The notes beneath the pieces are model-generated. The model had not been told where the DNA came from. It did not search any database and was given only the letters and a program-made list of their open reading frames with translations. The position numbers and the translations under genes are program-made. Source: a virus (taxonomy: Duplodnaviria; Heunggongvirae; Uroviricota; Caudoviricetes). Taken from it: 7,271 nucleotides of DNA. Where the stretch lies: positions 1-7,271 of IMG/VR virus record IMGVR_UViG_2778261641_000002. The stretch is one strand, 5' to 3'. Below, piece after piece: positions 1 to 7,271 of this stretch; within the stretch, counting starts at the first letter, position 1, and the number at the start of each line of letters is the position of its first letter.

Positions 1-125
1 TTCTCGCTACCAGTGGCGCGAGCAGTTTTCTCGCTGTAACCCGCCCTGATAGCTGCCTGAGTGGCGTTTAAATCTTTCAGGTACTCACGGGCAAACAGCT
101 CTTGTTTGTCGGTGAGCTTTGCCAT
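1..125 (-). CDS. Terminase small subunit (P27/Terminase_2-like), N-terminal 41 codons only; gene continues beyond the window start
   Basis: Minus-strand translation from the ATG at 125-123 gives MAKLTDKQELFAREYLKDLNATQAAIRAGYSEKTARATGSE with no stop before the window edge. The NATQAAIRAGYS motif matches what I recall of this small-terminase family. GGAG lies about 6 nt upstream of the ATG. Confidence 0.7.
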   Translation of the reverse strand, partial: MAKLTDKQELFAREYLKDLNATQAAIRAGYSEKTARATGSE

Positions 126-350
126 TGTTGGCTCCGTTTATCCGTTAAAAGGGATATCAGTTAAGTTATCCCGTGTAGGGTATAAGCCATTGTCGAGACC
201 ATTCATTGAATGGCCTCTGCAATAACCGATGTCTTCATCAGTCCGCCACCACAAAGAATCTTTTTTGCCATAAGGCAAGAGATTCATCTTTCAGTGGCTG
301 CCAGTGTTATTTCCCCACTTACTGGCTTGGGTTGTTTCGCTGTACTGCCG

Positions 351-893
351 TTAATTAGTGAGTCCGGGGATTACGGTTTGCCCGTGCTGTTCAAGGCGTT
401 CAATTCTCGCCATTAGCTGAGGCTTCTTAATTTTTCCCCAGCGATTAAGCAGGCGACCTGACATGCTGGCAACATCCTTCTCTTTCATGTACTCCAGCAT
501 TACGGCATTTCTCTCTTCTTCAAATTGACGATGACCAACCTGAAGCATGGCGTACATCCAGTTAAATGCGTTGATGTAAGCAATTTTGATACGCATTGCT
601 TCTTTTTTGGTGTAGGACATAACCAAAAGCATCAACCCATCCTTGCGGAGACGGTAGAATTTTTGCGGCTTACCATTCTGTAACTCATTGTTTTTATAGC
701 AAAGCTCAAAGTTGAGCTTTGTATCAAACTCAGGAGGGCAAGCTTCTATGGTTCGTTCAATGTCACGAACTACGTTCTTCGGCAGCTTTCCAAATGCTTT
801 TGCCACCATAAAAGAATCTGTAACCGGATCGTTGTTTGCTACAAAAATTAGGTCTCTGAAATCTATATCGTTAACAACGGTTGGGTAGTTCAT
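351..893 (-). CDS. Rha-family phage regulatory protein (180 aa)
   Basis: ORF-track protein MNYPTVVNDIDFRDLIFVANNDPVTDSFMVAKAFGKLPKNVVRDIERTIEACPPEFDTKLNFELCY...YRLRKDGLMLLVMSYTKKEAMRIKIAYINAFNWM. This follows the pattern I recall for the Rha (Phage_pRha) domain: PVTTS..IA..FGK.H.NVLRDI ... NFE ... Y.LTKDGF.LL.M.F ... YI.AFN.ME. Start ATG at 893; the upstream AGG is spaced rather far (about 11 nt). Confidence 0.6.
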   Translation of the reverse strand: MNYPTVVNDIDFRDLIFVANNDPVTDSFMVAKAFGKLPKNVVRDIERTIEACPPEFDTKLNFELCYKNNELQNGKPQKFYRLRKDGLMLLVMSYTKKEAMRIKIAYINAFNWMYAMLQVGHRQFEEERNAVMLEYMKEKDVASMSGRLLNRWGKIKKPQLMARIERLEQHGQTVIPGLTN

Positions 894-1041
894 TGCGTCT
901 TTACCTTTTAGAAAGATGAGCCTGTTCGCACAGAAAAGCCGTCCCCGAGATGGTCGCCACCATATACGGCAATTCTCAGGCTCAGCTTTCTGAAAGACTC
1001 GGGATTGTTACGCGCTGCGATGCGCGGTTTACTGCAGATGT

Positions 1042-1065
1042 AAAAAAGCCCCGCGAATGCGAGGC
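1042..1065 (-). terminator. Candidate intrinsic terminator for minus-strand transcription, downstream of Rz/Rz1
   Basis: On the minus strand, a 7-bp stem GCCUCGC / GCGGGGC (one G-U pair) with a 4-nt loop is followed directly by UUUUUU (plus-strand A-run 1042-1047). On the plus strand the same hairpin is not followed by a T-run, so the signal is orientation-specific. Confidence 0.4.
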
Positions 1066-1239
1066 TAAATCCTGGTATTTGTAATGACTGGCTCTTATCT
1101 CAACGCAGCCCCTTACCGCGCGCAAGATGCTCAATATCAAGCATCAGCAATGAGATGTTTAATCTGGATTCACTCCAGAAGTGATCACCACCCTGTCTAC
1201 AGAGCCAGATGTGAAGGATGATGAGTAAAATTATCGCTA

Positions 1240-1707
1240 TCATCGAAGGCATTGCGTCCTGATGTATTCCTGAAGCGTTCTCAGTGCTGTTTGGTCGCGG
1301 ATAATTCCGTCCCGGATATCGAGAACGTTTCGTCCAGCAACTGGAGAGAGTTCGACGGTGGCATCATTGCCCATGCCGGAGGCGCTGGAGGTTTTGGCTG
1401 AGGATGGCACAGGGCATTTTCCTTTGACGAGCACCCTGCCACCATTATCAAGCTTGCGCCGAAGAGCATCATTTTCAGCTTTCGCATCAGCTAACTCCTT
1501 CGTGTATTTAGCATCGAGTGCATCAGCATCACGCTGGCGCTGTTGCATGTCAGTAATGGTGGCGTTCGCCAGCTTCAGCTCACTGACTTTTTTATCGCGC
1601 TGCTCTTTGTAGGTAATGGCGTTATCACGGTAATGATTAACAGCCCATGACAGGCAGACGATGATGCAGATAACCAAAGCGGAGATAATCGCGGTTAACC
1701 GACTCAT
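1240..1707 (-). CDS. Rz: Rz-like i-spanin (inner-membrane spanin), 155 aa from the ATG at 1707
   Basis: The ORF-track reading frame 1240..1836, taken from the internal Met at 1707, begins [23 protein letters not shown] (an N-terminal transmembrane segment) followed by a charged, coiled-coil-like region ([53 protein letters not shown]). It sits just downstream of the endolysin and contains an embedded out-of-frame Rz1. The upstream extension to 1836 would overlap the endolysin and is probably not translated. Confidence 0.7.
1281..1487 (-). CDS. Rz1: Rz1-like o-spanin (outer-membrane lipoprotein) embedded in the +1 frame of Rz
   Basis: Protein [44 protein letters not shown]... has a lipobox (VAGC) and a proline-rich mature region. 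It closely resembles lambda Rz1 as I recall it (MLKLKMMLCVMMLPLVVVGC...PPPPPAW). It lies entirely inside Rz in another frame, the standard spanin architecture. Confidence 0.8.
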
Positions 1708-1795
1708 GACATCAACACTCCAACGGCCAGAAACCACGGCCACGCATCGTTGCCATTGAATGCGAGCAACGCTGCCATGAAAAAGCAAATCATGC

Positions 1796-2299
1796 TCATT
1801 GTTGCCCCCACAAACAGACTTCACGCTCAATCTCACGACGAGTCATCAGACCTTTCCATTGCTTACCGCCAGCGTATATCCAGCGACGTAGCTGGTCACA
1901 TGCGCCTTTGATATCGCCCTGGTTTATTTTGCGAAGAAGCGTCGATGTTCTGAAATTGCCAGCACCCACGTTGTAGACGAACGAGTAAAGAGCGCCGCGC
2001 GCTGTTTCCGGTATATCGACTTTGATGTACGGGTTAATTTGTCTGGCAACCGTGGCAAGGTCTTTATTCAGGAGGGCTTTGCATTCTGCTTCGGTATACG
2101 TTTTACCGAGCATGATGTCTTTTCCGGTATGTCCGTGACATACAGTCCATACACCAACAATATCTTTGTATGGTATGTAGCTGACACCTTCCAGACCATC
2201 GTTACCACTTGGTCCAGTGATTAACACAGATGCTATAGCAATAGCCCCGCCACTTATCGCCGCTATTACGCTATTTCGTAGTGCCGGTGACATTGCCAT
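1796..2299 (-). CDS. SAR endolysin (T4-lysozyme-like muramidase with N-terminal signal-arrest-release domain), 167 aa
   Basis: Protein [59 protein letters not shown]... has a Gly/Ala-rich weakly hydrophobic N-terminal segment typical of SAR domains, then the E...D...T catalytic arrangement (LEG..Y.D..G.WT.C.GHT) of phage lysozymes. GAGGA lies 8 nt upstream of the ATG at 2299. The start overlaps the holin 3' end by 29 nt. Confidence 0.85.
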
Positions 2300-2474
2300 T
2301 CAATCTGTCCTCGCGCTCTTTGCGCTTGTAGTACCAGTTGATGCCAAATGTGCCGACAGTACAAAGAATACCAATGATGACAGCCCAGTCATTCAGGGAG
2401 AGAATGCCACCCATCGCAGTCAGTCCTCCGAAGCTGTAACTGAACCATTCTCTGATTTTGTCCATACGGTACAT
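2271..2474 (-). CDS. Class II holin, possibly pinholin-like, with dual start (Met1-Tyr-Arg-Met4), 67 aa
   Basis: Protein [58 protein letters not shown] has two predicted transmembrane segments (the first glycine-rich) and a charged C-terminus. The two in-frame ATGs at 2474 and 2465 are separated by a basic residue, as in holin/antiholin dual starts. It is the first gene of the lysis cassette, directly upstream of the SAR endolysin. Confidence 0.75.
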
Positions 2475-2480
2475 GCTCTA

Positions 2481-2496
2481 CCCCTTCATTGAGGGG
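2481..2496 (-). promoter_or_regulatory. Stem-loop overlapping the holin ribosome-binding site (possible sdi-like translational control element)
   Basis: Plus-strand CCCCT-tcattg-AGGGG gives, in the mRNA, CCCCU-caauga-AGGGG immediately 5' of UAGAGC-AUG-UACCGU-AUG. The 3' arm (AGGGG) is the only purine-rich Shine-Dalgarno-like sequence for the first start. Confidence 0.3.
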
Positions 2497-2595
2497 ATTT
2501 GCTCTATTTAATTAGGAATAAGGTCGATTACTGATAGAACAAATCCAGGCTACTGTGTTTAGTAATCAGATTTGTTCGTGACCGATATGCACGGG

Positions 2596-2631
2596 CAAAA
2601 CGGCAGGAGGTTGTTAGCGCAACCTCTTGCC
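2596..2631 (-). terminator. Candidate tR'-like intrinsic terminator in the leader of the late (lysis) operon
   Basis: A 12-bp stem (GGCAGGAGGTTG 2602-2613 / CAACCTCTTGCC 2620-2631, one G-U pair) with a 6-nt loop. On the minus-strand transcript it is followed by GUUUUG (plus 2596-2601 CAAAAC). It lies about 245 nt downstream of the candidate -10 element. Confidence 0.35.
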
Positions 2632-2845
2632 ACCCGCTTTCACGAAGGTCATGCGTAGAATGCCGCAGCGTAACTATCACTGATGAATTCAGGATAGCCA
2701 GAGGCTACGGCTCAGTTTGGGTTGTGCTGTTGCTGGGCGGCGATGACGCCTGTACGCATTTGGTGATCCGGTTCTGCTTCCGGTATTCGCTTAATTCAGC
2801 ACAACGGAAAGAGCACTGGCTAACCAGGCGCGCCTACTCTTCACG

Positions 2846-2878
2846 ATTATAGACTCAATGCTCTTACCTGTTGTGCAA
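2846..2878 (-). promoter_or_regulatory. Candidate late promoter (pR'-like) just downstream of the Q-like gene
   Basis: A perfect TATAAT on the minus strand (plus 2846-2851 attata). Possible -35 elements are poor or badly spaced: TTGCAC (plus 2873-2878) has a 21-bp spacer. The call rests on position between a Q-like gene and the lysis cassette plus the consensus -10. Confidence 0.25.
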
Positions 2879-2939
2879 ATAAAAAAAGCCACCGTTGCAA
2901 CTTAAGAGTCACTAACGGCAGCTTACCTTCTAATTATGG

Positions 2940-3302
2940 CTAAATGGCTAATTGCATGTCAAGGCTTTTAACAGCAACATGCTTAACTTTCTCAACACGT
3001 TTACGCATTTTGAAAGCATTTTGCATCGGCTGGTATAAAACAAATAATGACGCTTTCAGGATGTCGTCAATTTCGTTTCTACAGGTTGCCAGTGAAGGTT
3101 TTCTCCATCCCTCGCCACCACGTCCACACATCTTGCGTGGCTTTGCAGTCGCGTGATAGTAGGATGCAATTGCTCGCTTAGATGAACCATGAGCGTAGTA
3201 GCTGAGGAGGATGCCAAAGGCTTTCTTGTCAATGTACATGACGGAATCGACGACCTGAGAAATCAACATTCCATCATCATCATTACACATTGGCCTTGTC
3301 AT
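2940..3302 (-). CDS. Q-like late antiterminator (phage-21/QuuD-type), probably N-terminally truncated; 120 aa from the ATG at 3302
   Basis: Protein [46 protein letters not shown]... aligns, from memory, with the middle of the 127-aa DLP12 QuuD-type Q protein (…[41 protein letters not shown]…), whose first ~40 residues have no counterpart here. The in-frame upstream region hits a stop 14 codons above the ATG. The position, immediately upstream of the late promoter and lysis cassette, is where Q sits in lambdoid phages. Confidence 0.4.
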
Positions 3303-4477
3303 AACTCTTCCCGATAGAGCATGATGATTGAGTCTGCGTCCTGTTCAATGCTTCCTGAATCACGCAAATCTGCGTTTGTCGGGCGTTTGTTTGGTCGCTT
3401 TTCAACATCGCGCGAAAGCTGACTCAGGGAGATAACCGGTGTTTTCAGGTCTTTCGCCATCGCCTTCAGGCTTCCGGAGATGTGGGCAATTGCGAGGTCG
3501 TTGCGGTCTGCTTTCGGCTTCTCAATCAGGCCAAGATAATCCGCCATGATGAGTGAGAGGTTTGGATTTTCCTGTTTGTGCCGTTCTGCGATTGAGCGTA
3601 TTTCTTCGACCGATAATCGCGAGGCATCGACTACCCATACATCCAAATCTGCAAGCTGACTCATGCCGTTAGCAACGCGCGCCCAGCCTTCGTCATCCAT
3701 CGCTGCAGGATTTCGCAGCACACTAACCGACATCCTCCCGGCGTTGGCAATGCTTCGCTCTGCAATCTGCAATGCGCTCATTTCCATTGAGAAAATCAAT
3801 ACCCCGCGCCGGACGTCAGAACCAGGAATAACGCGGCTTGCAACGCCTTCGGCAATCTTCAGCGCCAGTTCGGTTTTCCCCATACCAGGACGAGCAGCGA
3901 TTATCACCAGGTCTTCCGCGTTCATCCCTCCGGTGATGGCATCAAGTTCTTCAATTCCGGTCTTCAGGGTATCGGACTCTTCTCCGTTCCTCAGACGCCT
4001 GTCAAGCGTGTCAGTGTAGTCAGTAATGATTTCCCCTAACCGTACAGGTTTAACCTCGTCACGGGGCTTTCTGATGGCTGAAAGACGCTTTACAAGCTCA
4101 TCCATCGCCTGACTCGATGCGTCGATGGTTCCGCTCTGAATTGGTTCACGCATTTCATCCATGATTTCCAGCACCAGACGGCGGTGATAGTTATCCGCGA
4201 CCATTCCGGCATATCCCTTCAGGTTTGCGGCACTCGGGCAGTTTTTGCTGGTCATCAGGATTGAGGTGAAATGCTCCTCTCCGCACGCCTCGGCAACCAT
4301 CAGCGCGTCGATTAGGTTTCTGTTTCTCGCCTGCTTGCGGATAACCTCGAAGGCTCTCCGGTAGAGCGGAATTGAAAACGCTTCCGGCTCCAGCGTTGCC
4401 AGAACGTCGCTGGCGGTTGGTGTTAATCCACCAATCAGCAGGCCACCGATAACGCTCGCTTCGATATCCTGTCTCAT
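3299..4477 (-). CDS. DnaB-type replicative helicase (P22 gene 12-like), 392 aa; appears to lack about 45-50 C-terminal residues
   Basis: N-terminus [13 protein letters not shown] resembles E. coli DnaB IEAEQSVLGGLML. Walker [12 protein letters not shown] is present. The C-terminal region [46 protein letters not shown] aligns with Dna[50 protein letters not shown]..., but the ORF stops right after YREEL, whereas DnaB continues for about 49 residues including the GKQRNGP motif. The start ATG overlaps the O stop codon (ATGA). Confidence 0.85.
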
Positions 4478-5421
4478 GCAATCCCCCTGTCTGCAAACTT
4501 CCCTTCCCGTACTCCAGTTAACGAATCTTCCCTCAGCAGGTAATCAAAATCTGCCGTCCAGCCAGTGTCGTTGTCTCCGAAGTAAAACGGCTTGGCCTGA
4601 TGTACAAACGCCCTGACATACGCTCTGAAACCGTCCACGCTTGGCGTTTTCAGTTGCGGGATGATTTTCTTCAGGCGGCGTTTGCGTTTCTCGTTGACCG
4701 CAACAGCGTGTGGCAGTCTGTCACCGACTTCGGTGTTGTAGGCGTTCAGGAAGGATTCGTAGTCGATTCGTTCTGCCTTGCGACGTTCAGGTTTAACCTG
4801 CCCATCGCCGCCCCCATTGGGGGGTAGGGGGGTATTATTTATATTCTTGTTAATACCTTCTTGTTCATGATGTGCGGTTGTTTGTGCGGCTTCATGTGCG
4901 CTTTCATGTGCGGCATGTACGCTGAAAGCCGCGCCATTACTGGCTTCATCATGTGCGGCATCATGTGCGGTTGTTTGTGCGGCTTCATGTGCGGGTGAAT
5001 TGTCCATTTTTTGAGCGTATTCATGGTAATTTGTGATGGTGATCACACGACCTTTTTGCTTCTCTCCATCAATGGAGATCATCCCCTCTTTCACAAAAAC
5101 CTGAAGCATCCGCTCAACCTGATCACGGCTTGCCGGCTTGCCATGCCTGTCGCATAACTGAAGACCTAAATCAGCTGCTGTCACAACCAGTTGACCGGGT
5201 TGCAGATGCCATTCATGACCTTTGAAATTCGCTTTGTATGGCTTTCTGGCGGCATTCAGGAGAAGGTTTTCCCACAGGGTGCGAAGATAAACATCTTTCG
5301 CCCATGACTGTTTCAGAATGCTCCGGTACAACGGAATGTAACCAGTTTTCTGGTTCTCCATCCTGTTGCTCCTGCGCTCGTGTGCGGCGCTGAAATCGTA
5401 GATTTTTGCTGTATTGCTCAT
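4474..5421 (-). CDS. O: Replication initiator, lambda O-like N-terminus, 315 aa
   Basis: N-terminus [10 protein letters not shown] resembles lambda O MTNTAKILNF. The middle of the gene encodes a His/Ala-rich repeat ([41 protein letters not shown]) that coincides with a DNA iteron array, as for ori-lambda inside O. The C-terminal domain (…[29 protein letters not shown]) does not resemble lambda O, consistent with partnering a DnaB-type helicase rather than lambda P. Confidence 0.85.
4819..4860. other. AT-rich tract plus G6-TA-G6 element adjacent to the iterons (putative origin unwinding region)
   Basis: TATTATTTATATTCTTGTTAATA (4833-4855) lies directly downstream of the iterons in the O-gene sense, matching the iterons-then-AT-rich layout of ori-lambda. 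It is flanked by GGGGGGTAGGGGGG (4819-4832) and the near-palindrome CCCCCATTGGGGG (4811-4823). Confidence 0.5.
4866..4994. repeat. Iteron array of the replication origin inside the O gene: eight TGTGCGG cores at exact 12-bp spacing in two clusters of four
   Basis: Plus-strand TGTGCGG (or TGTGCGC) begins at 4871, 4883, 4895, 4907 and at 4952, 4964, 4976, 4988, with one degenerate copy TGTACGC at 4917. A 31-bp perfect direct repeat ATGTGCGGTTGTTTGTGCGGCTTCATGTGCG occurs at 4869-4899 and 4961-4991. Confidence 0.7.
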
Positions 5422-5423
5422 AA

Positions 5424-5696
5424 CTACCTGCCTTGACGAAAGACCTTAAGAACATCGTTAAACTGACTTACGGATATGTCTTCTTTGAGAAGCTTTTTCA
5501 GAAATGCGTTTGGAATTAACGTATATCCCTCCTCTTTTGGTAGAGACTGGAGCAACGCCCTCGCCTCAGCCTTCAGAAGCTCAGTTCTGGCAACTTTCAC
5601 AAAAGAGATTTGAGTTCTTTCATCAATGGAACGAAGGAAGCGCAAACGCTTAGCTTCTTTGTGTGTATCAGGTGGATTAAAGCCTTTGTTTCGCAT
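5424..5696 (-). CDS. Hypothetical protein, 90 aa, between cII and O
   Basis: The ORF-track frame 5424..5864, started at the internal ATG at 5696, gives MRNKGFNPPDTHKEAKRLRFLRSIDERTQISFVKVARTELLKAEARALLQSLPKEEGYTLIPNAFLKKLLKEDISVSQFNDVLKVFRQGR. A strong ribosome-binding site (GAGGTAA) lies 5-10 nt upstream. The gene is tightly packed: 22 nt after the cII stop, and its stop is 2 nt before the O start. I do not recognise the family. Confidence 0.5.
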   Translation of the reverse strand: MRNKGFNPPDTHKEAKRLRFLRSIDERTQISFVKVARTELLKAEARALLQSLPKEEGYTLIPNAFLKKLLKEDISVSQFNDVLKVFRQGR

Positions 5697-5718
5697 ATAA
5701 TTACCTCGTTGGATGTTG

Positions 5719-6018
5719 TTAAAAATCCATCTGGATTTGTTCAGAACGCTCGGTCTTGCACACCGGGCGTTTTTTATTGGTGATTTCATCAAGCGCATAC
5801 TTAAAAGCCCTGCTAATCGGACTGATGTCTGATGCCATTCCGAAAGCACACAAGACCGAAGCAATAAATCTCCAGTCCGTTCTGCTTATCTTCGATTCAT
5901 GACAGCCAATCATCTTTGCCAGACCGCGCTGGGTAAGCGTTGACAGGTTGATGAGTAAATCTGTTTCTGCGCGATCAACGTCGCGCTGTGATAGTTTGCT
6001 GTAACTTGTTTGTTCCAT
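5719..6018 (-). CDS. cII: cII-like transcriptional activator (lysogeny establishment), 99 aa
   Basis: The C-terminal region ...DEITNKKRPVCKTERSEQIQMDF matches lambda cII ...ILTNKKRPAATERSEQIQMEF as I recall it. A helix-turn-helix-like segment LTQRGLAKMIGCHESKISRTDWRF is present. The gene is immediately downstream of cro, as in lambda. Confidence 0.85.
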   Translation of the reverse strand: MEQTSYSKLSQRDVDRAETDLLINLSTLTQRGLAKMIGCHESKISRTDWRFIASVLCAFGMASDISPISRAFKYALDEITNKKRPVCKTERSEQIQMDF

Positions 6019-6103
6019 TTCTTAAGATTTCCAGTAGTGAATGGTTAGTTGAAAGGTATGCGTGGAAACGCATATGGCCTTAGTTGGTCAGATATCTTGG
6101 GAC

Positions 6104-6149
6104 TCGCTTTGTCAGCGACGTAGGACGAATGTCCATTGTGAAAATAGCG
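6104..6149 (-). promoter_or_regulatory. Candidate nutR-like site (boxA-like plus boxB-like hairpin) between cro and cII
   Basis: The minus-strand transcript reads CCGCUAUUUUCACAAUGGACAUUCGUCCUACG-UCGCU-GACAA-AGCGA. CGCUAUUUU resembles boxA (CGCUCUUA); UCGCU-GACAA-AGCGA is a 5-bp stem with a purine-rich pentaloop like lambda boxB (GCCCU-GAAAA-AGGGC). The position, directly 3' of cro, matches lambda nutR. The boxA-boxB spacing (about 22 nt) is longer than in lambda. Confidence 0.25.
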
Positions 6150-6156
6150 GTGTTAC

Positions 6157-6384
6157 TTATGCAGCCAGAAGGTTCTTTTTGCTTATTTCAAGCATTTCGC
6201 TTGCTTGATATTTGCCACCAGAAATCTCTTCGATTTTTGATGCGTATTTCGTTTTCCCAAAAAACTCAGTCTTAGGGAGGAAGCCGTTTTTGAGCCACTT
6301 ATAGACAGCCCTTTCGCTAACTCCACAAGCCTTCGCAACTTCAGGGATGCCGACACCTTTAATCGGCTCATCAAGATTTTGCAT
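6157..6384 (-). CDS. cro: Cro-like helix-turn-helix repressor, 75 aa from the ATG at 6384
   Basis: Protein MQNLDEPIKGVGIPEVAKACGVSERAVYKWLKNGFLPK... has a clear helix-turn-helix (IPEVAKACGVSERAVYKWLKNG). It is transcribed divergently from cI across a 78-bp operator region. AAGGA lies 7-8 nt upstream of the 6384 ATG; the ORF-track start at 6417 has no ribosome-binding site. Confidence 0.7.
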   Translation of the reverse strand: MQNLDEPIKGVGIPEVAKACGVSERAVYKWLKNGFLPKTEFFGKTKYASKIEEISGGKYQASEMLEISKKNLLAA

Positions 6385-6399
6385 AGGGATATCCTTTTT

Positions 6400-6461
6400 C
6401 GTACTTTCAGTACGCATTATGATTGAACTGAAAGTTTTTGCAAGTGCTTTAGTATCGTACT
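6400..6461. promoter_or_regulatory. Divergent immunity-region control region: three candidate operators plus pR (for cro) and pRM-like (for cI) promoter elements
   Basis: Inverted-repeat sites: CGTACtttcaGTACG (6400-6414), AACTGAAAGTT (6426-6436, which shares ACTTTCAGT in opposite orientation with the first), and AGTAtcgTACT (6451-6461, which shares CGTACT). Minus-strand pR candidate: -35 TTGCAA (6438-6443), 16-bp spacer, -10 CATAAT (6416-6421). Plus-strand TAGTAT (6450-6455) ends 7 nt before the cI ATG, and there is no Shine-Dalgarno sequence. Confidence 0.4.
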
Positions 6462-6462
6462 C

Positions 6463-7170
6463 ATGGTTCAGAATGAAAAAGTGCGCAAAGAATTCGCCCA
6501 GCGGCTAGCGCAAGCCTGTAAAGAAGCTGGTCTTGATGAACATGGTAGGGGAATGGCTATAGCCCGTGCCCTTTCTCTTTCGTCCAAAGGCGTTAGCAAA
6601 TGGTTTAATGCTGAGTCTTTACCGCGTCAGGAAAAAATGAATGCGCTTGCGAAATTTCTAAACGTTGATGTTGTTTGGCTTCAGCACGGCACTTCGTTAA
6701 ATGGAGCGAATGATGAAGATACTCTTTCATTTGTTGGCAAATTAAAAAAAGGGTTAGTGCGCGTGGTTGGTGAGGCAATTCTTGGTGTTGATGGTGCCAT
6801 CGAGATGACCGAAGAGCGCGATGGGTGGCTCAAGATTTATAGCGATGATCCAGATGCCTTTGGTCTTCGTGTGAAAGGAGACAGCATGTGGCCTAGAATA
6901 AAATCAGGAGAATATGTACTCATTGAGCCTAACACCAAAGTATTCCCGGGTGATGAGGTGTTTGTCAGAACCGTTGAAGGACACAACATGATCAAAGTTC
7001 TTGGCTATGACAGAGACGGAGAATACCAGTTTACAAGCATCAACCAGGACCATAGGCCAATAACGTTGCCTTATCATCAAGTAGCAAAGGTGGAGTATGT
7101 GGCTGGTATTCTGAAGCAATCTCGCCATCTGGATGACATCGAGGCAAGGGAGTGGCTGAAAAGTTCGTGA
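6463..7170 (+). CDS. cI: cI-type prophage repressor (N-terminal helix-turn-helix plus C-terminal LexA/S24-like autopeptidase domain), 235 aa
   Basis: The N-terminus (…RALSLSSKGVSKWFNAESLPRQEKMNALAKFLNV…) looks like a helix-turn-helix DNA-binding domain. The C-terminal domain has GDSMWP (catalytic Ser) and MIKVLG with the Lys exactly 37 residues after the Ser, the same spacing as LexA Ser119/Lys156. The gene is divergent from cro. Confidence 0.9.
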   Translation: MVQNEKVRKEFAQRLAQACKEAGLDEHGRGMAIARALSLSSKGVSKWFNAESLPRQEKMNALAKFLNVDVVWLQHGTSLNGANDEDTLSFVGKLKKGLVRVVGEAILGVDGAIEMTEERDGWLKIYSDDPDAFGLRVKGDSMWPRIKSGEYVLIEPNTKVFPGDEVFVRTVEGHNMIKVLGYDRDGEYQFTSINQDHRPITLPYHQVAKVEYVAGILKQSRHLDDIEAREWLKSS

Positions 7171-7271
7171 CTTCATCGTCACATAGCTGATAGCCAGTGG
7201 CCTGAAGAGACGTTTGGGTGATAGGAAGTAAGTTTTATGTTGACGGCACAGTCAACTTGGCATAGATTAAT

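Follow-up and report, generated by a model that had tools for sequence, protein, structure and literature searches.

The window analysed here is a stretch of 7,271 nucleotides (positions 1 to 7,271 of IMG/VR virus record IMGVR_UViG_2778261641_000002) from a virus of the Caudoviricetes. Its minus strand carries a lysis cassette together with a late promoter, a terminator, a leader and the remnant of a Q antiterminator gene. Listed from the upstream end of that strand, the features are:

2940..3302, minus strand: remnant of a Q antiterminator, 120 aa, without about 50 N-terminal residues
2933..2962, minus strand: late promoter of the pR' type (TTGACA, 18-nt spacer, CATAAT; 11/12 in the promoter scan)
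2879..2924, minus strand: intrinsic terminator of the tR' type (17-bp stem plus U7; -21.2 kcal/mol, z = -2.9)
2479..2887, minus strand: lambda-type late-operon leader (95.4% identity over 409 nt to lambda 44775-45181)
2481..2496, minus strand: sdi-type stem-loop CCCCU/CAAUGA/AGGGG (fold -7.5 kcal/mol; assigned by homology to lambda)
2480..2487, minus strand: Shine-Dalgarno (SD) sequence GAAGGGGU (duplex with the 16S rRNA 3′ end -8.0 kcal/mol)
2271..2474, minus strand: holin gene, 67 codons, 204 nt (PF16080, phrog_20)
1796..2299, minus strand: SAR endolysin of the R21/RrrD type, a GH24 lysozyme (PF00959, 154 bits)
1704..1799, minus strand: 31-codon hydrophobic ORF between the endolysin and Rz genes, overlapping at both ends through ATGA
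1240..1707, minus strand: Rz i-spanin, 155 aa (PF03245, 103 bits; phrog_13, full length)
1281..1487, minus strand: Rz1 o-spanin lipoprotein, inside Rz in another frame (PF06085, 72 bits)

Reading both strands at the holin gene, we found that the minus strand carries all of these features. The reading frame opens with AUG-UAC-CGU-AUG, encoding Met-Tyr-Arg-Met, with the first start codon (AUG1) at 2474-2472, the second (AUG4) nine nucleotides further on at 2465-2463, and Arg3 between them. Translation from AUG1 gives a product of 67 aa and translation from AUG4 one of 64 aa; by analogy with known dual-start holins the longer form is a putative antiholin and the shorter a putative holin. The two in-frame starts with an arginine between them that the earlier note had reported are therefore present on this strand, and the codon for the basic residue varies synonymously across homologues. 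Existing annotation is split between the two starts, as phage records use Met1 and PGAP uses Met4 (64 aa, WP_001360173.1). The plus-strand ORF at 2217..2492 is antisense to this gene and is a mechanical ORF opposite a conserved coding sequence.

The holin matches PF16080 (Phage_holin_2_3; the HP1 holin family, TCDB 1.E.7) with 75.1 bits (E = 4e-21; gathering cut-off 28.8) over profile positions 1-49 of 56, and PHROGs classes the protein as a holin (phrog_20); no NCBIfam model matches it. BLASTP aligns it to HP1 Hol with 41% identity over 41 aa (E = 5e-6), and PF16080 is found in all 42 full or partial relatives that have a precomputed domain. Membership of the S21 family (PF04971) was considered and rejected on a score of 19.5 bits against a cut-off of 26 and a BLASTP E of 0.27 against S21-71. 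With tblastn the holin is 100% identical in Salmonella phage PS119 (gene 13, AJ011581), SE1, SPN9CC, BTP1, SEN22, Emek and others, and in P22-like phages identical holins are frequently annotated as "class II holin". Judged by this identity the lysis cassette is already catalogued, and GenBank has the same protein and leader under PS119 gene 13. The SPN9CC cassette, with its identical holin, was reportedly the subject of an experimental study by Shin and co-workers in 2014.

Hydropathy divides the holin into a weak first segment at about residues 10-27, a strong second segment at 30-49 and a charged, net-basic C-terminal tail, KRKEREDR. The first segment contains four glycines, and Gly, Ala, Ser or Thr make up 9 of the 17 residues from 11 to 27 (53%; KD about 1.1), in agreement with its earlier description as glycine-rich. 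An AF2 model built with 25 sequences also has two helices (3-22 and 30-58), though its confidence is low (pLDDT 63). Three segments had been set beforehand as a possible refutation, and both hydropathy and the low-confidence model give two. By these two predictions the protein is a class II holin: small, with two hydrophobic segments and a charged, net-basic tail.

Immediately upstream of the gene, CCCCU (2496-2492) pairs with AGGGG (2485-2481) across the loop CAAUGA (2491-2486), followed by UAGAGC and then AUG1. Using ViennaRNA, we found that this 5-bp hairpin is both the MFE and the centroid structure in contexts of 26, 56 and 111 nt (-7.5 kcal/mol), and 4 of the 5 pairs remain in a context of 146 nt. 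The sequence GAAGGGGU spans the entire 3′ arm of the hairpin and is the sole strong complement to the anti-SD. No other site near either start is stronger than -3 kcal/mol, and the UAGAG downstream of the stem reaches only -2.1 kcal/mol, compared with -8.0 kcal/mol for the 3′ arm. These energies bear out the claim that the hairpin holds the only strong SD purines. The end of the SD's GGGG core lies 6 nt from AUG1 and 15 nt from AUG4, the second being a long spacing. A reading of the palindrome as a plus-strand terminator was also tried and rejected; the scan calls it terminator-like on the plus strand, and no plus-strand family-matched gene ends there.

Taken alone the hairpin is statistically weak, with a z-score of -1.6 to -2.1. 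When the 5′ flank is shuffled with dinucleotides preserved, 23 of 200 shuffles sequester the SD no less strongly than the real sequence, indicating that much of the effect is the C-run itself, and SD pairing probability gives no discrimination from shuffles, since any C-rich flank will pair with a G-rich SD. Compared with real ORFs, the signal is clear. The cost of opening the SD at the holin gene is 8.8 kcal/mol, higher than at any of the 167 background ORFs that have a good SD, drawn from related loci and the window (median 2.6, maximum 8.4 kcal/mol), and the corresponding costs are 9.0 kcal/mol for lambda S and 8.5 kcal/mol for S21. The dual start, for its part, is clearly beyond chance.

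The region upstream of the hairpin is assembled from parts of known late operons. Between the hexamers of the late promoter lies a direct repeat, ATTAGCCA/TTTAGCCA, where phage 21 has its Q-binding element in an alignment to the annotated pR' region. The terminator, of the phage 21/CUS-3 type, is identical in sequence to one annotated in the phage 21 record OL657228, and Q must override this tR'-type terminator for the lysis genes to be transcribed. The leader that follows is of the lambda type, and its match to lambda stops 5 nt before the S start in lambda and 5 nt before AUG1 in the window; CUS-3 labels the same stretch bsq3, a "boundary sequence". Across the junction lambda reads aaauCCCCUUAUUGGGGGUAAGAC-AUG-AAG-AUG and the window aaauCCCCUCAAUGAAGGGGUAGAGC-AUG-UAC-CGU-AUG, with an identical 5′ hairpin arm and with a loop and 3′ arm that differ while retaining the pairing. 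The leader homology and the boundary label together indicate that the joint between the leader and holin modules lies in or at the hairpin. The earlier note had called the hairpin analogous to the lambda sdi structure; the resemblance stands, and "analogous" is too weak a word for a structure that lies within a lambda-type late leader and, on the alignment, is homologous to sdi. A search of the whole window against Rfam at E up to 1 gave no match and no tRNA genes were found in the window, leaving the Q-S spacer without a catalogued RNA.

Downstream, the endolysin start overlaps the 3′ end of the holin gene by 29 nt. The endolysin is approximately 95% identical to PDB 4ZPU (RrrD) and 3HDE over 165 residues (E = 1e-105), and we take the 3HDE lysozyme to be R21, which is the paradigm SAR endolysin. 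Its N-terminal segment (residues 11-27) has a KD of 2.43 and is 53% Gly, Ala, Ser or Thr, and the motif E-x8-D-x5-T is legible in the translation. The SAR domain that had been attributed to the holin's partner is supported by this near-identity and by the Gly/Ala/Ser/Thr-rich N-terminal segment, and the near-identity to R21 suggests that the enzyme would be tethered to the membrane and released on depolarisation. The further proposal of an S21/R21 pair holds for the endolysin, which is R21-type, but not for the holin, which belongs to the HP1 family and not to that of S21. The 31-codon ORF corresponds to the hypothetical orf30 in phage Emek, is absent from PS119, CUS-3 and LSC52, and has no family match in NCBIfam or PHROGs.

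To place the locus among its relatives we surveyed homologous loci from 80 species, each represented once. In 56 of the 80, two AUGs lie within four codons of each other and enclose an Arg or Lys, in the motifs MRM, MTRM, MQRM, MYRM, MKM and others. Across these 56 loci the basic residue is encoded by five synonymous or conservative codons (AGA, CGA, CGC, CGT or AAA), and codon 2 varies, with synonymous changes. The varied codons for a kept basic residue point to a translated residue ahead of the second Met that is under purifying selection, and to selection on that Met as well: M4 is nearly invariant among closer relatives, in the motif M-Y/Q/H-R-M. Single starts were found in 16 of the 80 loci, and the distant Serratia and Rahnella homologues have either a single start or M-T-M.

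The median cost of opening the SD is 6.4 kcal/mol for dual-start homologues, 3.9 kcal/mol for single-start homologues and 2.6 kcal/mol for background ORFs (Mann-Whitney p about 1e-20, uncorrected for relatedness). RNAalifold, run on two MAFFT alignments of upstream regions (48 and 29 sequences), found no consensus structure, since the 5′ arms do not line up. Counting one predefined 9-bp SD stem across 29 relatives whose leaders are unrelated gave 85% pairing, compared with 44-53% in slid controls; the count is biased towards pairing because the stem was derived from one member. Four of its pairs change on both sides. Additionally, the downstream gene is a homologue of the window lysozyme in all 74 readable loci (phmmer E 1e-16 to 1e-99); every one of these lysozymes has an N-terminal hydrophobic segment, and 67 of the 74 have an E-x8-D/C-x5-T motif.

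Altogether, the survey suggests that enterobacterial HP1-type holins in general have the dual-start/antiholin device and a sequestered SD. A broader proposal, to which we give roughly even weight, is that the HP1-family holins of the Enterobacterales are a lineage apart from S21 that would run the full S21/lambda programme. In this proposal the programme would combine a dual start with an extra basic residue, an SD stem-loop rebuilt in unrelated leaders, and an obligatory SAR lysozyme. The same evenly balanced proposal would further have the joint through the hairpin let recombination swap holins while control is kept. A literature search found no paper describing such a family-wide pattern in HP1-type holins.

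We think it probable that the gene opens a lysis cassette of the usual lambdoid type, that of a lambda/P22-like prophage (holin, SAR endolysin, Rz/Rz1), and encodes a dual-start, HP1-family class II holin behind an sdi-type hairpin, most likely a pinholin. Transcription would start at a late promoter of the phage-21/CUS-3 type and pass a Q-dependent terminator, then a lambda-type leader, before entering the cassette. A single SD, locked in the 3′ arm of the hairpin, would then serve two start codons. Initiation at AUG4 would give the 64-aa lethal holin, by analogy with lambda S107/S105 and S21-71/S21-68, and initiation at AUG1 the 67-aa form, in which Arg3 adds an N-terminal positive charge. 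This extra charge could hold the weak first segment in the membrane and retard its exit or reorientation, making the long form an antiholin until depolarisation. The hairpin would limit total initiation and set how much of one product is made relative to the other, which in turn would time lysis. Meanwhile the R21-type endolysin would export itself by means of its SAR domain, and depolarisation alone would release the lysozyme: small holes would depolarise the membrane, the tethered lysozyme would be freed and the spanins would complete lysis. The use of both starts is inferred by analogy with lambda and phage 21. Pinholin activity is the most likely property given the pairing with an R21-type endolysin, since an endolysin of this kind needs only depolarisation, and pinholin activity has been reported for HP1 Hol.

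The reading that competes best with this one, although an unlikely one in our estimate, is that a dual-start class II holin makes large, non-specific holes and that its SAR partner reflects module shuffling and not a functional need. SAR endolysins also occur with non-pinholin holins, and the pairing alone is therefore no proof of pinholes. The cassette is indeed a mosaic, with a 21-type promoter and terminator, a lambda leader, an HP1-type holin and a 21-type endolysin, pinholin status is illegible from sequence, and membership of the S21 family fails. Against shuffling, however, stands the constancy of the partner, a lysozyme with an N-terminal hydrophobic segment at all 74 readable loci. 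The weakly hydrophobic first segment, with its 53% Gly, Ala, Ser or Thr, is compatible with a SAR-type TMD1 though not diagnostic of one, and HP1 Hol killed cells without lysis or release of beta-galactosidase (PMC7312051).

Somewhat less likely again is that a single start is used and the second AUG is incidental, with the hairpin merely keeping translation of the holin low and no antiholin being made. Low translation would suit a holin because its dose sets the time of lysis, and the annotators have each chosen one form, PGAP that from Met4 and the phage records that from Met1. HP1 Hol and the 16 single-start loci manage with one start, and the 15 nt between the SD core and AUG4 also lean this way. 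These points are outweighed by M-(x)-R/K-M in 56 of 80 species, by the five codons used for its basic residue and by the near invariance of M4, and lambda and phage 21 have functional versions of this architecture (PMC3369941; PMC9636201). Finally, we consider it very improbable that the hairpin is an inherited piece of lambda-type leader without a role here, or a plus-strand terminator or RNA-stability element: the palindrome scores as terminator-like on the plus strand, its 5′ arm is part of the shared leader and shuffles often sequester the SD too, but the family-matched ORFs between 351 and 5421 are all on the minus strand, the palindrome has a poor T-run, an SD-sequestering stem with compensatory changes persists in relatives whose leaders are unrelated, and the window's 3′ arm differs from lambda's with the pairing kept.

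The state of the Q gene bears on whether the cassette could be expressed in the window. The Q remnant matches Pfam Phage_antitermQ only at profile positions 41-92 of 118 and phrog_943 at positions 53-164 of 165. Compared with CUS-3 by BLAST, about 3.3 kb is missing, and the breakpoints are joined at a 13-nt microhomology (3313-3301). The nin region was lost in this deletion, along with 66 codons from the end of the P helicase gene and about 48 from the beginning of Q; the junction was found in none of 5,426 complete E. coli genomes. With a truncated Q, transcripts from pR' should stop at 2879, and the cassette in the window is probably silent unless a related phage supplies Q. The truncation thus implies a silent, orphaned lysis cassette in this element.

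The locus itself has little discovery value, as the gene, protein, leader and endolysin are all in public records and the proposed mechanism is a textbook lambda/phage 21 lysis clock. For annotation, both the Met1 and the Met4 products should probably be recorded, following the practice for lambda and phage 21. That HP1-type holins conserve the dual start, the SD hairpin and the SAR partner across the family adds modestly to what is known, and the enterobacterial members would make an easy second system for models of pinholin/antiholin topology.

Four known systems can be compared with the window. Lambda S107/S105 shares the leader (95%, 409 nt), the 5′ hairpin arm, an SD in the 3′ arm and two AUGs flanking a basic residue. 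In lambda, however, S is annotated as 324 nt compared with 204 nt in the window, the starts are Met1 and Met3, and the hairpin is AUCCCC/UUAUU/GGGGGU, so that the loop and 3′ arm UUAUU/GGGGGU correspond to CAAUGA/AGGGG here. Lambda S is a three-segment class I holin and lambda R a cytoplasmic transglycosylase. The lambda stem-loop, which includes the RBS, sets the ratio of S105 to S107 (PMC3369941; PMC3359269), and the antiholins S107 and S21-71 have one extra N-terminal positive charge (PMC9636201).

Hol of Haemophilus phage HP1, the prototype of PF16080, belongs to the same holin family, and the gene after it, Lys, encodes a SAR endolysin and begins inside the holin gene. Unlike the window holin, HP1 Hol has 78 aa, no dual start and no known antiholin. 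It has been reported as a pinholin working with a SAR endolysin and as having an unusual C-out topology (PMC7312051).

The holin of phage 21, S21-71/S21-68, has two segments and, as in the window, a basic residue separating its starts at Met1 and Met4. From the second start onwards, 12 nt (ATGGACAAAATC, M-D-K-I) match exactly, the SD is likewise covered by a stem-loop (opening cost 8.5 compared with 8.8 kcal/mol), the endolysin is approximately 95% identical and tR' is identical. Phage 21 differs in its holin family (PF04971) and in its leader, which has two tRNA genes in place of the lambda leader.

In PS119 (AJ011581, genes 13/19/15), the 45 nt upstream of the holin gene, including the hairpin and SD, and the first 30 nt of the gene, including both starts, are identical to the window. 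Nucleotide identity is 94%, falling to 89% across Rz, and the endolysin and holin genes overlap in the same way. The window, like Emek and PS34, has the 31-codon ORF between endolysin and Rz that PS119 is without, and its cassette, unlike that of PS119, is set in an early region of CUS-3 type in which Q is truncated.

In the leader of the holin gene, the minus strand can form a second stem next to the sdi hairpin that holds the holin Shine-Dalgarno (SD) sequence. Positions 2534-2545 (GAUUUGUUCUAU) pair with 2497-2508 (AUAGAGCAAAUC) to give 12 bp, including one G-U pair, closed by a loop of 25 nt, and this stem adjoins the sdi hairpin with zero nucleotides between them. The 74-nt fold has a predicted energy of -19.3 kcal/mol (z = -2.2). 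Covariation is unavailable for the 12-bp stem because lambda and CUS-3 have exactly the window's sequence there.

At the other end of the holin gene, the C-terminal residues K-E-R-E-D-R-(L)-N-G-N are invariant (2271-2320, minus strand), and their codons overlie, in another frame, the endolysin SD (GAGGA) and its start AUG-GCA-AUG. The invariance of these residues may result from dual coding with the endolysin SD and start. With its M-A-M start, the endolysin adds another pair of closely spaced starts to that of the holin; here PGAP chose the second Met. Downstream, the cassette contains a short reading frame:

1704-1799, minus strand: hydrophobic 31-codon ORF, placed between the stop of the endolysin gene and the start of Rz.

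This ORF has ATGA overlaps at both its 5′ and 3′ ends, and its sole annotation is as hypothetical orf30 of phage Emek. Family searches with it gave zero matches. The stretch that bears it was found in PS34, SEN22, 2B8, and 60 E. coli genomes; PS119, CUS-3, and LSC52 do not have it. The product could be an additional membrane peptide of the lysis cassette.

Upstream of the cassette, the window carries a deletion of ~3.3 kb relative to CUS-3, by which a P helicase gene truncated at its C-terminus (3299-4477; 392 aa vs 458) is joined to a Q gene truncated at its N-terminus (2940-3302; 120 aa vs 172). The two genes meet at a microhomology of 13 nt (3301-3313), with an ATGA stop/start overlap, and all 5,426 complete E. 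coli genomes searched lack this junction. Lambdoid O genes carry origin-iteron arrays, and the replication O gene of the window contains a periodic 12-nt repeat (CATGTGCGG; 4864-5006) that looks as such an array would. Read in a different frame, this repeat also yields a shadow ORF rich in His and Met.

Among the surveyed holin loci, holins of 84-92 aa with an M-T-R-M-S-T start occur in Kluyvera, Citrobacter, Klebsiella, Phytobacter, and other genera (loci L014, L016, L020-L022, L024-L026, L028, L029, L033, L035, L037, L040, L042, L043, L050, and L056-L058). These have an additional Gly/Ser/Thr-rich N-terminal segment followed by an HP1-type transmembrane segment, and one of them matches PF16080 and also PF04971. 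The SD hairpins predicted for these loci, typically of 9 bp, rank among the strongest of the survey, with SD-opening costs reaching 10.5 kcal/mol.

The 12 nt that begin at the second holin start of the window (ATGGACAAAATC, encoding M-D-K-I; 2454-2465, minus strand) are identical to those of the phage 21 holin S21 (910-921 of comparison locus L084), whereas outside M-D-K-I the protein similarity is not significant. At the late promoter, the -35/-10 interval contains the direct repeat ATTAGCCA/TTTAGCCA (2937-2952, minus strand), which is presumably the Q-binding element for the CUS-3-type Q; in phage 21, two Q-binding elements (ATTGAGCA/AATGAGCA) occupy exactly the equivalent place.
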